A stretch of 7,394 bases of DNA from a virus: the IMG/VR virus record IMGVR_UViG_3300036763_000250. The stretch is one strand, 5' to 3'. Under the pieces are notes generated by a model, which searched no databases, had not been told where the DNA came from, and was given only the letters and a program-made list of their open reading frames with translations. The position numbers and the translations under genes are program-made. Each line of letters begins with the position of its first letter. The stretch's first letter is position 1. Below are positions 1,926 to 7,394 of the stretch, piece by piece.

Positions 1926-2239
1926 TGCCGGCAGTTATCGCGTTATTCCTACGTTTACTCGGGGCGTCTCTTGTTCCGCTAGGTTGGCGGTTGTTGCGTG
2001 GTCTTGGCTTTGCCGCGTTCACGTTTACCGGCATTCAATTGATGATGGATCAGGCCAAGGACTACGTATTTCAGCAGCTCCTTTCCTTGCCTTCTGAGTG
2101 GGTGCAGATGATTGGTCTGCTCAAACTCGATGTCTGTTTCAACATCTTGTTTTCAGCCTATGTTGCCCGTGCCGTCCTGTGGGGCATGAATCAAGCGACA
2201 GGCAGTAAATCCGGCGTTCGCTGGGGAGGAGGGGCCTAA
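1925..2239 (+). CDS. g6p-like minor coat / membrane protein (Ace position)
   Basis: The 104-aa protein has several hydrophobic segments. It lies between the g3p-like and Zot-like genes. Its start overlaps the g3p stop (TGATG) and its stop overlaps the zot start (TAATG). Confidence 0.6.
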   Translation: MPAVIALFLRLLGASLVPLGWRLLRGLGFAAFTFTGIQLMMDQAKDYVFQQLLSLPSEWVQMIGLLKLDVCFNILFSAYVARAVLWGMNQATGSKSGVRWGGGA

Positions 2240-3453
2240 TGCTTATTCTGAGAACTGGCCTGCCGGGCTCTGGAAAAACGCTCAACACCATCCGCGAAAT
2301 TGAGCTTGAACATGGTCCAGATCCTAAGAACCCTGCAAAGGAGCTTCGGACGGTTTACTACTACGGAATTCCCGACCTCGACTTAGACAAGCTGGGTTGC
2401 AACTGGGTCGAATTCGACACGCCGGATGAGTGGTACAACCTGCCAGACGGCTCCGTCATCGTCATGGACGAGGCTCAGCGGGTTTTTGGTGCGCAGGATG
2501 GCCGCAAGGCACGACCCGAGAAGGTCGCCCGCTTCGAGACTCACCGTCACCAGGGCTTCGATATCCACCTGATCACGCAGCACCCCAGCTTGATCATGAG
2601 CCACGTCAGGAAGCTGGTCGGCAAGCACATCAACATGTACCGGCCTTACGGTGGAAAGCGCCTGCTGCGGCATGAATACGAGTTTTGTATCGACAGCCCG
2701 GAGAAGCGCAGTCAGTTCAAGCTTGCCCAGGAGCGCCGTGTAAAGCTCGATGCGAAGTACTTCGGTGTCTACAAGTCCGCCACGGTGCACACGCACAAAT
2801 TCAAGTTGCCAAATTACGTGTGGTACATCCCGCCGCTGGTTCTGTTCATTGGCGCAGCTGCCGTATATGTGACGTCGCTTTACAGTCCAAAGGATGCGCC
2901 TCCGATCGCTGATGCTGCCGTTGATTCGGTTCCTGTTGCGGGTTCCGATTTGAATGCAAAGCCCACTGCAGTATCTGCACCAGGTGCTCAGCAAGCTCCG
3001 TTGACGCCAGAGCAGTACGCCGAAAGCTTTAGCCCCAGGATTTCAGATGTGCCGTCCAGCGCTCCGCGTTATGACAGCCTGACAGAGCCGAAGTCCTTCC
3101 CGCGGCTTACCTGTGTGTCCAGTTTTGACCCTCTGCTGATCGACAAGCTTTATCGTCGTGGTGCGCCGGTTGGTCAGACTGATGGCAGGCAGTACGCTTG
3201 CCAGTGCTACACGCAGCAAATGACGCGCCACGACACCAGCGCGGAATTCTGTATGTCTGTGGTTGAGAATGGCTACTTTGATGACACGCTGCCTGACAAG
3301 CTCGCTGCCACGCAGCACGTGTTCAACTCAGATCGACAACAACCGGCTGCTGCAACAGGGCGAGTGCCCGCAGCCCAGATGCCGCAGCCGGCAGCCAACT
3401 ACGTCCCGGCGGTAACGGTGGTTAATTCTGGCAAGCCTGGGCACCTTTGGTAA
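2239..3453 (+). CDS. Zot-like assembly ATPase (g1p family)
   Basis: SD GGAGGAGG lies upstream. The N-terminal Walker A motif is GLPGSGKT (aa 7-14) and the Walker B-like motif is VIVMDEAQ. A single TM helix (WYIPPLVLFIGAAAVYVTSLY, about aa 195-215) is followed by a Pro/Ala-rich, Cys-containing periplasmic C-terminal domain. This is the standard Zot/pI topology and position. Confidence 0.9.
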   Translation: MLILRTGLPGSGKTLNTIREIELEHGPDPKNPAKELRTVYYYGIPDLDLDKLGCNWVEFDTPDEWYNLPDGSVIVMDEAQRVFGAQDGRKARPEKVARFETHRHQGFDIHLITQHPSLIMSHVRKLVGKHINMYRPYGGKRLLRHEYEFCIDSPEKRSQFKLAQERRVKLDAKYFGVYKSATVHTHKFKLPNYVWYIPPLVLFIGAAAVYVTSLYSPKDAPPIADAAVDSVPVAGSDLNAKPTAVSAPGAQQAPLTPEQYAESFSPRISDVPSSAPRYDSLTEPKSFPRLTCVSSFDPLLIDKLYRRGAPVGQTDGRQYACQCYTQQMTRHDTSAEFCMSVVENGYFDDTLPDKLAATQHVFNSDRQQPAAATGRVPAAQMPQPAANYVPAVTVVNSGKPGHLW

Positions 3454-3462
3454 AAGCCAATG

Positions 3463-3551
3463 CTTCGCATAATGCGTAACGTTACGTTAAGTCGGCTCCG
3501 GAAAATGCTGTAAGCTCCGGGGGCGATTTAGACGTAACGTCCATTATGCGA
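3463..3551. other. Putative XerC/XerD-dependent attP: two dif-like sites in inverted orientation, foldable into a forked hairpin on the + ssDNA
   Basis: Site A (+ strand, 3464-3492) reads TTCGCATAA-TGCGTAACG-TTACGTTAAGT. Site B (reverse complement of 3525-3551) reads TCGCATAA-TGGACG-TTACGTCTAAAT. Compare dif, GGTGCGCATAA-TGTATA-TTATGTTAAAT. The pairings are 3465-3474/3542-3551, 3479-3487/3532-3540 and 3488-3494/3524-3530. An internal loop falls at the central-region position. Confidence 0.6.
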
Positions 3552-3778
3552 TGCCCCTCCTAGACCTCCCTGAATATCTGTTACGTGACGCACGACTCTA
3601 TGCCCCTGGTCGTGATGATCTGGGTGCTGTCCTGCATTTGCTCGAGGACTACGGCCGGCTTGTCGGTGAGCTTCGCCAGGTGCGCCGCCGGCTAGCGCAA
3701 TTGGACGAGGAGGGCGCTGCCTTGGATGCCCGTCTAGCGGCCCTTCAGGACGCCTGCCGGGCGATTCTGGAGCTTTAG
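3551..3778 (+). CDS. Hypothetical 75-aa protein, predicted helical / coiled-coil (Leu/Arg/Ala/Asp-rich)
   Basis: This is the only long ORF in the interval. First codon positions are G-rich, as in coding sequence, and there is a heptad-like LxxLxxxL pattern (ELRQVRRRLAQLDEEGAALDARLAALQDA). No recognisable SD precedes it. The ATG abuts the attP-like arm. The stop TAG (3776-3778) overlaps the stop of the convergent gene. Confidence 0.45.
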   Translation: MPLLDLPEYLLRDARLYAPGRDDLGAVLHLLEDYGRLVGELRQVRRRLAQLDEEGAALDARLAALQDACRAILEL

Positions 3779-4354: not shown

Positions 4355-4441
4355 CGTAACGATAAATACACCAGCGTAACGTAACGATAAATACGACCGT
4401 TCGTCGGCTATTTGTAACGCCATGCGCGTAACGACAAATCA
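4355..4441 (+). repeat. Three direct iteron-like repeats CGTAACGA(T/C)AAAT(A/C) at 4355-4369, 4380-4394 and 4427-4441, plus an extra CGTAACG at 4375
   Basis: CGTAACGATAAATAC occurs twice exactly, 25 bp apart. CGTAACGACAAATCA is a third, degenerate copy. All lie immediately upstream of, or overlapping, the putative promoter of the minus-strand 178-aa gene. Confidence 0.8.
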
Positions 4442-4548
4442 ACTCGGATTCGCCCCGAGCCCGGCCCCAGGCCGCCCCTTTACTGTCCAACCCGCCTTTC
4501 GCTCTCCGTGGTCATAGGCTCAGCCGCGTGCGGTACACCCGCACATTT

Positions 4549-4639: not shown

Positions 4640-4643
4640 TTTG

Positions 4644-4664
4644 GTATGCAATCGCATACTTTTT
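4644..4664 (+). terminator. Terminator-like hairpin on the + strand (GTATGC aatc GCATAC + TTTTT)
   Basis: The 6-bp perfect stem has a 4-nt loop and is followed by 5 T. The T-run follows the stem only in + orientation, although the nearest gene (XRE) is on the minus strand. Confidence 0.5.
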
Positions 4665-4666
4665 GG

Positions 4667-4996
4667 CTATCTGAGTGCTTCTTGCTCGTAGCCGAACAGG
4701 ACTCCTTTTAGAGCAATTTTTGCCTGATTCCTGATATCTGCGGGCAGTGCATCGAAGCGCTTCAAAATCGGTGCTATGTCTTCGGATACTGACCGTTCTT
4801 GTTCGTCTAGCAGTAACTCATCAGTCGTTGTCCCGAGTACTTTCGCTAGGGCTACAACGGTGTCACCTGCTGGAATAGCCTTGCCGGCCTCGTATGACAC
4901 GTAGCTTGATTTGCTGACGTGGGCAGCCTCCCACACATGGCGTTGAGTCAGCTTTTTAGCCTTTCTGCACGCCTTGAGGTTCTCGGCGATTGTCAT
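4667..4996 (-). CDS. XRE-family (Cro/CI-type HTH) transcriptional repressor; candidate phage lysogeny/immunity repressor (RstR / Pf4r position)
   Basis: The HTH_3-like signature is LKACRKAKKLTQRHVWEAAHVSKSSYVSYEAGKAIP. The gene is divergent from the Rep gene. The preferred start is ATG 4996, with GAGGA 7 nt upstream (109 aa). The alternative ATG 5023 would add 9 aa. Confidence 0.85.
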   Translation of the reverse strand: MTIAENLKACRKAKKLTQRHVWEAAHVSKSSYVSYEAGKAIPAGDTVVALAKVLGTTTDELLLDEQERSVSEDIAPILKRFDALPADIRNQAKIALKGVLFGYEQEALR

Positions 4997-5023
4997 GGCT
5001 CTATCCTCTTGATCGGTGTTCAT

Positions 5024-5154
5024 TTCCCGACCTTAATCGCTGGCTGCTTATACAGTGCCGAAATCCTGATACATTTCTGCTTGCTTTCTGATAGCTGCAA
5101 ATCCTATGATCCTGTCCATCAAGTATTGGTTTCCTGATATTGACAGGGATTGGC
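5024..5154. promoter_or_regulatory. Divergent promoter/operator region between repressor and Rep
   Basis: The repeated motif T(C/T)CTGATA occurs at 5064-5071, 5086-5093 and 5132-5139. The related AAATCCTaTGAT is at 5099-5110, compared with AAATCCTGAT at 5061-5070. The candidate + strand promoter has -35 TTGCTT (5081-5086), an 18-nt spacer and -10 TATGAT (5105-5110). The candidate minus-strand -10 is TATAAG (5052-5047). Confidence 0.55.
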
Positions 5155-6279
5155 ATGTTCTACGATTGGATCAAGGCATATCAGGATTATGACTACGACC
5201 TTCCGAAGGTTGGTGACGTCATCTGTCGCCGCTTTGATTCCGAGACCGAAGAGCTCCTGTCAACGAGCGTTCCTGCCTTCTTTGCAGAGGGTAGCTACTG
5301 CACCACGTTCCGCATTCATGTGTGCGGGCGCCGCATCACAGTTGATGGCAATGCCTCCCGGTTAAATCGCCTGGATAACGTCTTCGGCATCGAACGTCTC
5401 GACGACTGCATGAAGGTGATTAACGCGCTGCTCGCTGAGTACGGTCTGCCGCCTATGACCAAGTGCAAGAACATCCAGCGCCTTCAAGACGGTTCGTCGA
5501 TTGCCGACGGCGCGGTTTTTCAGCGCCTCGACCTGACCAGTAATTTTTATGTAGGGCAGGGCAACGAAAGGGCGTTTCTCCGGGGTATTTCGAGCCAGCG
5601 TTTCCGTAATTCGATTGCCTATCTGTACCCCGATGGCAATACATGCGTCTGGACCCCGAAGGGCGGTGAGAAGGCCGGCTCTCTGGTTTATCCCGGTAAT
5701 TACAACAAAGCGGCTGAGTTAGACGCTCACCTGTTGCCCAAGGTCAAACGTACTTTTGGCGAAGATTCTGACGAATTCCGCTACGTGCGGGAGTTGCGCG
5801 ATCACTGTAGAGCGGTCGGCATGGTGCGTTCCGAACTCAAGTGCCGTTCGGAATATTTGAAGAGGGAAGGGCTCCGGTTTTGGGGGCTTTTCGATGAACA
5901 GAAACTTGTGGAAATCCACAGGGGGTTTCTCATGGTTGGCGAGAAGTGCGAGATCAATAATTTTGATCAACTGACAGTGGCGGACGAGCTGCTGGCCAAG
6001 GGCATTTGTGAGCACCGTAAAGCTGCAATGACTACCGCTGGTTATTCGGCGCTTTGGCAGTCTGGTCAGCAGTTTGACTTCGAAACTTCGGCTGTTAAGA
6101 AGCACCGTGCGCGCTTACGGCAGATCGGTATTGATATCAAGTTGCCGTTCGATGCTACTCGCCACGGTGTTGTTTTCATCCGCAACGTCCGCGAAATCGA
6201 GCGTGTTTTCGAGCTGCCGACTCCGGCGTTCTATCGTCCTGCCGTGATCCCGCGTCACCTGCAATTGGTGGCTGCATGA
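5155..6279 (+). CDS. Rolling-circle replication initiation protein (gene II / RstA / Phage_CRI-like)
   Basis: The 374-aa protein starts at ATG 5155, with AGGGA 5 nt upstream. The ORF-track TTG 5140 is less likely. The N-terminal FYDWI and the block ITVDGNASRLNRLDNVFG match, from memory, the IDWL and GNxSK..(G)HNVFG signatures of filamentous-phage replication proteins. It is the first gene of the + strand operon, next to the repressor as in CTXphi. Confidence 0.8.
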   Translation: MFYDWIKAYQDYDYDLPKVGDVICRRFDSETEELLSTSVPAFFAEGSYCTTFRIHVCGRRITVDGNASRLNRLDNVFGIERLDDCMKVINALLAEYGLPPMTKCKNIQRLQDGSSIADGAVFQRLDLTSNFYVGQGNERAFLRGISSQRFRNSIAYLYPDGNTCVWTPKGGEKAGSLVYPGNYNKAAELDAHLLPKVKRTFGEDSDEFRYVRELRDHCRAVGMVRSELKCRSEYLKREGLRFWGLFDEQKLVEIHRGFLMVGEKCEINNFDQLTVADELLAKGICEHRKAAMTTAGYSALWQSGQQFDFETSAVKKHRARLRQIGIDIKLPFDATRHGVVFIRNVREIERVFELPTPAFYRPAVIPRHLQLVAA

Positions 6280-6769: not shown

Positions 6770-7125
6770 AAATCCTTCGTGGCTTCGTTCAAGGTGTTGT
6801 TCCTATGGGCAGTCCTGAAAAGCCTTGGGCACTTGTCGGTATTAACAGCATCAGCAAAAACCGTAACGGATTCGATGAAACTGACCTTATTGAATTTATG
6901 GTTGCGGGCAAGCAATACAAAGACGGTTTGCACAACGCTTATCGTCAACTAGAAGGCACTGAAGTGTTCGCACCTTACTCCGACGAAATCGATACTTATA
7001 ACGGTAAGTCTCGTATCCGTTATGGCCTCCTGGGTGTCCCTGTTCGCCTTCAAGAAGCTCGCCCAGTTCAAGAAGCCCGACCCTCTTCCGCCACACAACA
7101 GCAACCTGCTGCTAAGGCTGGTTAA
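6766..7125 (+). CDS. Putative ssDNA-binding protein (g5p analogue)
   Basis: The 119-aa protein has SD AGAGGTG 5 nt upstream. It sits just before the small TM protein and coat genes. A globular body is followed by a flexible Pro/Gln/Ala-rich tail with the tandem QEARP-V-QEARP. From memory, the Pf1 gene 5 protein also has a P/Q-rich C-terminal tail. The assignment rests mainly on position. Confidence 0.45.
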   Translation: MKILRGFVQGVVPMGSPEKPWALVGINSISKNRNGFDETDLIEFMVAGKQYKDGLHNAYRQLEGTEVFAPYSDEIDTYNGKSRIRYGLLGVPVRLQEARPVQEARPSSATQQQPAAKAG

Positions 7126-7256: not shown

Positions 7257-7388
7257 ATGACGCTTCAAGAAGTGCGTGACGTTTCGTTCGCACAGATGAC
7301 CGCTGAGCAAAAAGCGCAACTAACTAGTTCGCTGCTCGGTTTCTTTTGCCTGATCTTCGTACTGATAAAACTCAGGCGTATTACTTAA
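7257..7388 (+). CDS. Small membrane protein (g7p/g9p-like minor coat or PfsE-like), start uncertain
   Basis: The ORF ends at TAA 7386-7388 (equivalent to 119-121), just before the coat gene. The C-terminal hydrophobic helix plus basic tail is LLGFFCLIFVLIKLRRIT. Possible starts are ATG 7257 (43 aa), ATG 7296 (30 aa) or upstream TTG/GTG 7179/7191. No clear SD precedes any of them. Confidence 0.5.
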   Translation: MTLQEVRDVSFAQMTAEQKAQLTSSLLGFFCLIFVLIKLRRIT

Positions 7389-7394
7389 GGAGCT
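7268..7394. repeat. Terminal direct repeat copy 2 (identical to 1-127)
   Basis: Same as copy 1. Confidence 0.95.

Follow-up and report, generated by a model that had tools for sequence, protein, structure and literature searches.

The closest described system to the locus considered here is attP(+) of the Vibrio cholerae phage CTXphi, a forked hairpin of the sites attP1 and attP2 through which single-stranded DNA (ssDNA) of the phage is integrated at dif1 by XerC catalysis (PMC3089051, PMC5357621). The spacers of attP1 and attP2 are 12 and 7 nucleotides (nt) long, respectively (PMC3089051). Outside Vibrio, CUS-1phi of E. coli O18:K1:H7 and YpfPhi of Yersinia pestis are described as carrying attP with “features for direct ssDNA integration” (PMC3089051). 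In this work, we analyze a 93-nt hairpin located at positions 3462-3554 of a 7,394-nt stretch of viral DNA, IMG/VR record IMGVR_UViG_3300036763_000250, which is referred to as the window at its full length. This hairpin is probably the attP of an integrative element of the CTXphi type, which makes use of XerC and XerD, the Xer recombinases of its host. The ssDNA mechanism of CTXphi was reportedly worked out by Val et al. in 2005 and has been known since then; CTXphi is, to our knowledge, essentially the only phage for which ssDNA integration via host XerCD has been demonstrated.

Filamentous phages of Pseudomonas are described as using their own integrases, in contrast to the users of XerCD (PMC7549136, PMC4863604, PMC7307601), and the Pf phages encode tyrosine integrases for insertion in tRNA or tmRNA genes or direct repeats (PMC7549136, PMC4863604). 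Integrase-less prophages of 6.6-7.4 kb with terminal repeats of 11-12 nt are reported from P. aeruginosa, where their site is given as “intergenic region” and they “may” use host-encoded integrases; dif, XerCD sites and a folded attP are not mentioned in this account (PMC10675462). The searched literature thus agrees with the remark in the original prediction for this DNA that the mechanism is not established for Pseudomonas-type inoviruses (PMC10675462), although a prior description is still possible, as the 2013 review of integrative mobile elements exploiting Xer (IMEX) was outside the search.

Structure of the hairpin and its dif-like sites

The hairpin starts 9 nt past the stop codon of zot (3453), and at its 3' end it shares four bases with the start of an open reading frame, ORF75. 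It consists of two dif-like sites, site A and site B, that face each other, and comprises the following features.

3462..3554, + strand (packaged, gene-sense): whole putative folded attP(+) hairpin, 93 nt, delimited by fold, homologues and covariation
3464..3472, + strand: site A arm for XerC binding, TTCGCATAA, the same sequence as in the XerC arm of dif beside related prophages
3473..3481, + strand: site A spacer, TGCGTAACG, 9 nt, of which 3475-3478 form the 5' side of the asymmetric loop in the fold
3482..3492, + strand: XerD-arm-like half of site A, TTACGTTAAGT, 9/11 matches to TTATGTTAAAT, pairs with 3526-3537
3496..3522, + strand: apical stem-loop CTCCGGA...TCCGGGG, with the motif GGA-N-W-AT at 3500-3506 (GGAAAAT)
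3526..3537, - strand: XerD-arm-like half of site B, TTACGTCTAAAT, whose extra base is G3531 on the + strand, bulged
3538..3543, - strand: site B spacer TGGACG, canonical 6 nt, bottom strand of the central region in the fold
3544..3552, - strand: XerC-arm complement of site B, ATCGCATAA, pairs with 3464-3472 to give a duplex XerC-binding arm

The 10-mer TCGCATAATG is present in two exact, inverted copies, at 3465-3474 (+) and 3542-3551 (-), against an expectation of 0.00 in 200 shuffles. The exact search is the relevant one; the search with one mismatch allowed is uninformative (2 matches vs 0.41 expected). Site A reads TTCGCATAA, TGCGTAACG, TTACGTTAAGT on the + strand of 3464-3492, and site B reads TCGCATAA, TGGACG, TTACGTCTAAAT on the reverse complement of 3526-3551. 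The inverted pair had been described in the original prediction with the same sequences, but with the start of site B one base off (3525-3551). The XerD-like half of site A matches TTATGTTAAAT at 9 of 11 positions, as had been counted before, and that of site B at only 7 of 11 without gaps, owing to its one extra base.

Folded as + strand ssDNA, positions 3455-3560 reach -31.9 kcal/mol, compared with -13.1 +/- 2.3 kcal/mol in 200 shuffles (z = -8.2, none of the 200 as good), and the - strand of the same region folds less stably (-26.8 kcal/mol). The proposed ssDNA fold is therefore strong, better on the + than on the - strand, and conserved through compensatory changes that are discussed in the following section. 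The repeat finder and the minimum-free-energy fold with DNA parameters recover all three pairing segments put forward earlier, namely 3465-3474 with 3542-3551 (the 10-bp XerC-arm stem), 3479-3487 with 3532-3540, and 3488-3494 with 3524-3530, the last of which contains one G.T pair, with G3531 bulged. The asymmetric internal loop of 4 nt (3475-3478) opposite 1 nt (3541) is also observed, and the minimum-free-energy fold places one extra pair, G3476-C3541, inside it. From base to apex, the fold is thus composed of the XerC-arm stem, the 4-against-1 loop, a stem of XerD-like arms with the bulged G and the G.T pair, and the apical stem-loop. No known RNA family of Rfam matches the hairpin region.

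Conservation, covariation and strand bias

Relatives were gathered by Zot protein searches, which provided 10 loci from bacterial genomes and 53 from IMG/VR (designated below by L numbers). Among them are 26 distinct homologous hairpins, always right downstream of zot and on the gene strand, with Zot proteins 38-81% identical to that of the window. The hairpin detection had returned 27 sequences, of which one in L006 (143 nt, poor arms) is a false positive and was excluded by hand. The metagenomic phage blackswan219-1 carries the same element at the same place, after zot and ahead of an ORF75 homologue.

The alignment of 13 short-class hairpins, termed A1, has a consensus structure of 32 pairs, and compensatory double changes are found in 16 of these stem pairs. 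On this consensus, 92.3% of cells are paired, compared with 80.4% in column shuffles and 30-42% when the partners are slid; the covariation score of 0.383, compared with 0.169, is reached by none of 500 shuffles. The non-Watson-Crick oppositions on the + strand amount to 38 G.T and 7 A.C in A1, and to 84 G.T and 24 A.C in arm-against-arm alignments of all 26 hairpins. The excess of G.T over A.C indicates folding of the + strand, since an inverted repeat maintained as duplex would give no such asymmetry. The direction of this bias is consistent across deep divergence. The + strand fold is also the more stable one, by a mean of 4.2 kcal/mol, in 24 of the 27 sequences detected (the false positive L006 included). 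The hairpin is a conserved structure under selection on the + strand.

The architecture of the two sites is conserved as well. Every relative has in site A, on the top strand, a XerC arm, a spacer of 8-13 nt and a XerD-like arm, and in site B, on the bottom strand, a XerC arm, a spacer of 6-8 nt and a XerD-like arm. The site A spacer measures 9-13 nt in 25 of the 26 hairpins and 8 nt in L008. Across the family, the extra bases of the A/B pairing are always on the top strand. The hairpins of L007, L009 and L012 are forked, in contrast to the unforked one of the window. We also note that the XerD-arm pair TTATGTTGAGC (top) and TTATGTTACGC (bottom) is present at L015:4913, L016:5769, L058:117 and L059:1135, and in L008 and L052 with TTACGTT....

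Two loci with Zot 39% identical, L010 and L013 (a Stutzerimonas stutzeri metagenome-assembled genome (MAG) and Pseudomonas sp. ML96), have no hairpin, and no dif is found within 10 kb; these may integrate in another way.

Integration of related prophages at dif

The dif sites beside related prophages have the form (G)ATTCGCATAA-TGTATA-TTATGTTAAAT, with TCTATA and TACATA as variants of the central region, and share their XerC arm TTCGCATAA with both window sites, which bears out the dif comparison proposed at the outset. With bona fide dif defined by the pattern CGCATAA-N6-TTATGTTAAAT/C, all 16 prophage loci that have such a site, in Pseudomonas and related hosts, show it on the zot strand, 13-243 nt past the zot stop; the core of site A in the window starts 13 nt past the zot stop. 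The relatives sit at dif and not at tRNA genes, and their junctions correspond to window positions 3464-3474, in keeping with the position expected for a CTX-type event.

Junctions are resolved in L005, L007, L009, L069 and L070. In L005, L007 and L069, the crossover falls within the XerC arm of site A plus the first 1-3 central bases. In L005 (Pseudomonas mangiferae), the left junction reads host GGAAA-TTCGCATAATG-GGGTTCGAGG phage, the tandem junction reads phage AGGGC-TTCGCATAATG-GGGTTCGAGG, and the right junction reads phage AGGGC-TTCGCATAATG-TATATTATGTTAAAT host. In L007, the crossover is narrowed to CGTATAATGT because the host and phage XerC arms differ there, and this interval spans the XerC cleavage position between arm and central region. 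The same pattern is seen in L068-L070, the relatives closest to the window among those integrated (Zot 70% identical), at dif sites with the central regions TACATA and TCTATA; their left junctions join host ...GATTCGCATAA to the phage site A spacer. TCTATA is found at L020:4326, L021:9244, L028:5189, L069:10246 and L070:7229, and TACATA at L068:10244. The site A spacer starts with TC in L021 and in episomal blackswan219-1 (L003), and in L069 and L070 (TTTT) has only the first T in common with dif. The matching of central regions may thus be looser here than in the compatibility rules of CTXphi.

All 16 dif loci have the orientation that is set by site A, and the canonical-looking site B is never the recombining site. 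Recombination of site B as a duplex attP would invert the prophage and place zot far from the regenerated dif; this possibility was rejected, the opposite orientation being absent in the 16 loci. Tandem arrays are frequent, being present in L005, L007, L009, L035, L041, L043, L044 and L060.

Several observations on individual loci deserve mention. The prophage remnant of ~3 kb at L068 7306-10244, which retains the hairpin, part of pIII, pVI and zot, is still flanked by the left attachment site (attL) and dif, consistent with an element unable to excise and decaying in place. L008, a MAG contig derived from Oxford Nanopore Technologies reads, contains a second phage-dif right junction and a zot fragment (20411-20438 and 20598-21048, both on the - strand), inverted and 9 kb from the first; rather than pointing to a second dif, this duplicate probably arose by fold-back during assembly. 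At 4200-4214 of L008, upstream of its left junction, lies an extra XerC-arm-like copy, TTCGCATAG-TTAAC-TTCGCATAA, which may be the scar of an earlier Xer-mediated event.

The record of the P. aeruginosa phage Pf 36-2 (L014, OR621019.1) starts and ends with the 12-nt repeat TTCGCATAATGT (1-12 and 7090-7101, annotated “repeat_region”), which corresponds to the XerC arm of dif followed by TGT, the first three bases of the central region. These termini identify the record as a prophage whose ends were set at the Xer crossover points; the attP hairpin lies at the left end.

Proposed mechanism of integration

In the mechanism that we propose, sites A and B would anneal on the circular + strand into a dif-like pseudo-duplex with a perfect XerC arm, a partly unpaired central region with three extra top-strand bases, an imperfect XerD arm and the apical stem-loop. 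Host XerC and XerD would bind this pseudo-duplex and synapse it with chromosomal dif, after which XerC would exchange one strand pair, the phage strand being cut at the predicted position between 3472 and 3473. Replication would then turn the pseudo-Holliday junction into the prophage. At the left end of the prophage, the host XerC arm would be joined to the site A spacer; the XerC arms being identical, the whole hairpin sequence would be rebuilt there, masked in duplex DNA. At the right end, directly after zot, a functional dif would be regenerated. The duplex prophage ends should be poor Xer substrates, which would make integration effectively irreversible, and progeny + strands would arise from rolling-circle replication across tandem copies. 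For the window phage, the predicted right attachment site (attR) is ...AAAGCCAATGCTTCGCATAA joined to TGTATATTATGTTAAAT, and the predicted attL is the host XerC arm joined to TGCGTAACGTTACG. The binding of XerC and XerD, catalysis by XerC only, replicative resolution and irreversibility are what we infer for the window element by analogy with CTXphi.

Known XerCD substrates in duplex form have central regions of 6-8 bp. The exchanged site A has a 9-nt spacer (8-13 nt in the family), which is too long for a duplex XerCD site and suggests ssDNA rather than duplex as the substrate. A folded + strand as substrate would account for the conserved pairing of A with B, for the restriction of the extra bases to the top strand and for the G.T bias. 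That the recombining site has the over-long spacer and the site with the canonical spacer is left unused is the same argument as that behind the ssDNA model of CTXphi. The case for ssDNA thus draws on spacer length, site B conservation and G.T bias, which together argue for a folded substrate.

The window itself encodes no recombinase, and displays inverted annealing sites and an over-long top-strand spacer (9) opposite a 6-nt bottom-strand spacer. Residence at dif is seen in the relatives at 16 loci, and the crossover at the XerC point with dif regenerated on one side in those with resolved junctions (L005, L007, L009, L069 and L070). The tandem arrays and the decayed L068 remnant, again of relatives only, are consistent with irreversible integration and tandem-derived progeny. 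The comparative evidence supports a CTX-type interpretation, under which the window phage would be expected to integrate as its relatives do.

Several points weigh against this interpretation. The sequences behind the covariation and the G.T counts are related, and the events are therefore not independent. The XerD arm of the window hairpin is poor, with one bulge and one G.T pair. Several relatives match the host dif at the first central base (T) only, and the homology between attP1 and dif1 of CTXphi is stronger. Integrated copies (attL or attR) of the exact window phage are absent from the IMG/VR and metagenome scans, and its integration is extrapolated from relatives with Zot at most 70% identical (81% for one junction-less fragment). 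The junctions alone fit both ssDNA integration and duplex recombination at site A. Finally, the conservation of the apical loop means that selection on the hairpin extends beyond Xer recombination.

Alternative explanations

Site A might act as a duplex attP of the VGJphi type, recombining with dif from the double-stranded replicative form in a XerC-first reaction, with the complementarity of A and B explained otherwise, e.g. as a packaging hairpin. Such recombination predicts exactly the same junctions and orientation, the apical loop could be kept for some other function, and the 8-nt spacer of L008 has a length that is tolerated at known Xer sites such as cer. We nevertheless regard this explanation as unlikely, because 25 of 26 hairpins have a site A spacer of 9-13 nt, longer than the 6-8 bp of known duplex substrates, and because the dif-like XerC arm, the 6-8 nt spacer and the XerD-like arm of site B are kept everywhere, none of which a mere stem partner needs. 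The confinement of the extra bases to the top strand and the + strand G.T excess in the stems also speak against it, and a VGJ-type site would permit excision, yet tandem arrays and the decayed L068 remnant are found at dif.

Alternatively, the hairpin could chiefly be an ssDNA signal of morphogenesis or replication, i.e. a packaging signal or complementary-strand origin as in Ff phages, in a purely episomal phage whose dif-like arms are relics. It lies after the last morphogenesis gene, where the packaging signal of Ff phages is located, GGA-N-W-AT at the apex shows both conservation and strand specificity, and the window is a contig of the circular episomal form, of which the IMG/VR and metagenome scans contain no integrated copy. 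This explanation is decidedly improbable: each XerC arm is an exact 10-mer that matches Pseudomonas-type dif plus TG in full, the spacer asymmetry and the XerD-like arms are intact where a relic is expected to decay, and all relatives with host flanks lie at dif. A packaging role of the apex is, however, compatible with the hairpin being an attP, and is quite plausible as an added function. That the hairpin is an intrinsic transcription terminator or attenuator closing the zot operon can practically be dismissed, since a strong stem-loop straight after the zot stop is present but has no T-run after its stem, the terminator scan is empty at 3455-3560, the stem is far longer than needed, and the dif-like sequence and prophage junctions are left unexplained.

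Known types of integration other than that of CTXphi were considered and do not match the window. In TLC-type IMEX, attP has a good XerC arm and central homology but no XerD arm, and the exchange is XerD-first, aided by the phage protein Xaf (DUF3653). In the window, XerD-like arms are present (site A 9/11), and ORF75 and ORF198 have no Pfam match, DUF3653 included. A single duplex site of the VGJ type is not supported, as two inverted sites are always present, the used site has a 9-nt spacer and the 6-nt site is wrongly oriented. For the Pf1/Pf4 type, there is no integrase, the relatives are at dif, and no tRNA-like att site is involved.

Apical loop motif and ORF75

No variation occurs in A1 at G41, G42, A43 and T47 (numbering of the first sequence), which are window positions 3500-3502 and 3506. 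The motif GGA-N-W-AT occurs on the + strand of 19 of the 26 hairpins and on the - strand of 1, with ~1 expected by chance. Its apical position matches in L005, L007, L009, L011, L012, L016, L019, L025 and L035, and also in L038, L041, L043, L055, L056, L058, L059 and L067. This stem-loop at the apex, a candidate packaging signal or complementary-strand origin, may serve a second function.

We tentatively raise the possibility of a two-in-one hairpin, with the base as the XerCD attachment site and the apical GGA-N-W-AT loop as packaging signal or complementary-strand origin, though we hold it to be doubtful. If it were true, competition for a single structure would decide whether each new + strand is exported or integrated. 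The minimal CTX-type site would then be given by the 26 variants as a paired XerC arm, 2-6 extra top-strand bases and an imperfect XerD arm, with the fork optional, and ssDNA integration would be ancient and widespread in Pseudomonadaceae, clinical P. aeruginosa included.

The gene next to the hairpin is the following.

3551-3778, + strand: ORF75, with its start codon ATG (3551-3553) right next to the XerC arm of site B

A homologous reading frame of 72-84 amino acids follows the hairpin in L003, L006, L008 and L011, and small reading frames occupy the same position in L069-L072. ORF75 matches PHROG 13909, which has no assigned function. A known DNA-binding or Xer-activation protein was considered and rejected for ORF75, with no match in Pfam and coiled-coil design proteins only in PDB. 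After integration, ORF75 would be the first gene beside attL; a role in Xer activation or hairpin binding is pure speculation.

Phage genome and search for further copies

The window ends in an exact direct repeat of 127 nt (1-127 = 7268-7394), which identifies it as a circularly assembled genome of 7,267 nt. It is the episomal or virion form of an inovirus, with attP intact. Its gene set is as follows.

+ strand: coat-like protein, part of the inovirus gene set
429-1925, + strand: pIII-like protein
1925-2239, + strand: DUF2523 pVI-like protein
2239-3453, + strand: Zot/pI, stop codon at 3453
4667-5023, - strand: helix-turn-helix repressor
5140-6279, + strand: G2P-type rolling-circle Rep
ORF198, - strand: protein of 198 amino acids with no assigned function

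The Zot protein matches the PHROG family “CTXphi Zot-like” (5e-41). Integrase, resolvase, transposase and recombinase families gave no matches with 20 reading frames against Pfam and the 10 main reading frames against PHROGs, and the earlier claim that the phage has no integrase holds within these scans. We also note terminator-like hairpins at 4441-4461 (-) and 4643-4660 (+), in the regulatory region between the ORF198 and repressor genes; 2 are found vs 2.0 expected, i.e. the level of chance.

The window sequence itself is found in metagenome contigs only, as one circular contig and two fragments. In a megablast search with the complete window, the metagenomic “Phage blackswan219-1” comes nearest among GenBank phages (81% nucleotide identity over zot); the other GenBank phage match is 68 nt to Pf 36-2, and there are no further matches. 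Exact-pattern searches of IMG/VR and the metagenome collection, the latter apparently without the phage-bearing contig L001, gave no match to the phage's own right junction GCCAATGCTTCGCATAATGTATA or to any copy of its site A, CGCATAATGCGTAACGTTACGTTAAGTC. The named hosts of Zot homologues are Pseudomonas, Stutzerimonas and Ectopseudomonas, with the exception of one contig labelled Geobacter. This 3.4-kb contig (L004, DKFG01000078.1, from the MAG “Geobacter sp. UBA6802”) is the closest match to the window Zot in the genome collection, at 81% identity, and is likely mis-binned.

Significance

The results indicate that a large and diverse family of ~7-kb, Zot-encoding inoviruses carries a CTX-type device. 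The hosts of this family are Pseudomonas, Stutzerimonas and related bacteria, and its prophages include those in P. aeruginosa isolates from cystic fibrosis. This would explain prophages annotated only as “intergenic region” with 12-nt repeats, and predicts that prophages of the family are unable to excise and that they occupy and modify dif. The textbook contrast in which Pseudomonas filamentous phages use their own integrase would be corrected accordingly, and dozens of natural variants with covariation define what a folded Xer substrate needs. The mechanism itself is already known; its occurrence in the Pseudomonas family is an addition that is solid and useful, and not mechanistically surprising.

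Comparison with known systems

The likeness to CTXphi extends from the fold to the genome. With the same folding tool, the CTXphi tandem junction reaches -42 kcal/mol (z = -6.8), and its fold, like that of the window, has a paired XerC arm, an asymmetric loop on the 5' side and an imperfect XerD-arm stem, with the distal part forked in CTXphi. Neither phage has a recombinase of its own, and in both the two inverted dif-like sites are flanked by the end of the zot module on one side and by a repressor with divergent transcription on the other. The top-strand spacer is over-long (9 nt here, 8-13 nt in the family, 12 nt in CTXphi) and the bottom-strand spacer is 6-7 nt. The relatives further share with CTXphi the prophage at dif, the orientation set by the long-spacer site, the regeneration of dif on the zot side and the tandem arrays. 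The XerD arms TTATGTTGAGC / TTATGTTACGC of some relatives are nearly identical to TTATGTTGAGG / TTATGTTACGG of CTXphi and have the same GA/AC mismatch at arm positions 8-9; either this mismatch is functionally required, or the attP ancestry is common to Vibrio and Pseudomonas phages. In contrast to CTXphi, the XerC arm of the window is of the Pseudomonas type, TTCGCATAA, rather than GCGTATTA, the hairpin is shorter (93 nt vs ~150) and unforked, the XerD arm is bulged where CTXphi has a 2-nt mismatch, and the apical loop motif is conserved in the window family. The structural and replication proteins are only distantly related, and the window element is known from sequence alone.

CUS-1phi and YpfPhi, compared here by description, are likewise non-Vibrio inoviruses at dif with attP predicted from sequence, but have Enterobacterales hosts and belong to another phage lineage. 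VGJphi-type IMEX and Cf1c, phiLf, XacF1 and RSS1 of Xanthomonas, Stenotrophomonas and Ralstonia resemble the window phage in being integrase-less and using host XerCD and dif, and the XerC arm of the window resembles Xanthomonas- and Pseudomonas-type dif. These phages have a single duplex attP with a central region of normal length and can excise, whereas the window has two inverted sites, the spacer of the used one being 9 nt long, and these are conserved together as a hairpin of the + strand.

Groups 4-7 of P. aeruginosa phages of Evseev et al. 2023, e.g. Pf 36-2, belong to the same phage family, and Pf 36-2 has the same hairpin. The P. aeruginosa Zot homologues are 49-53% identical to that of the window, and the window phage is a different, more distant member than these groups. 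Pf1, Pf4 and Pf5 are also inoviruses of Pseudomonas, but they use their own tyrosine integrases, in contrast to the window phage, which has no integrase and whose family resides at dif.

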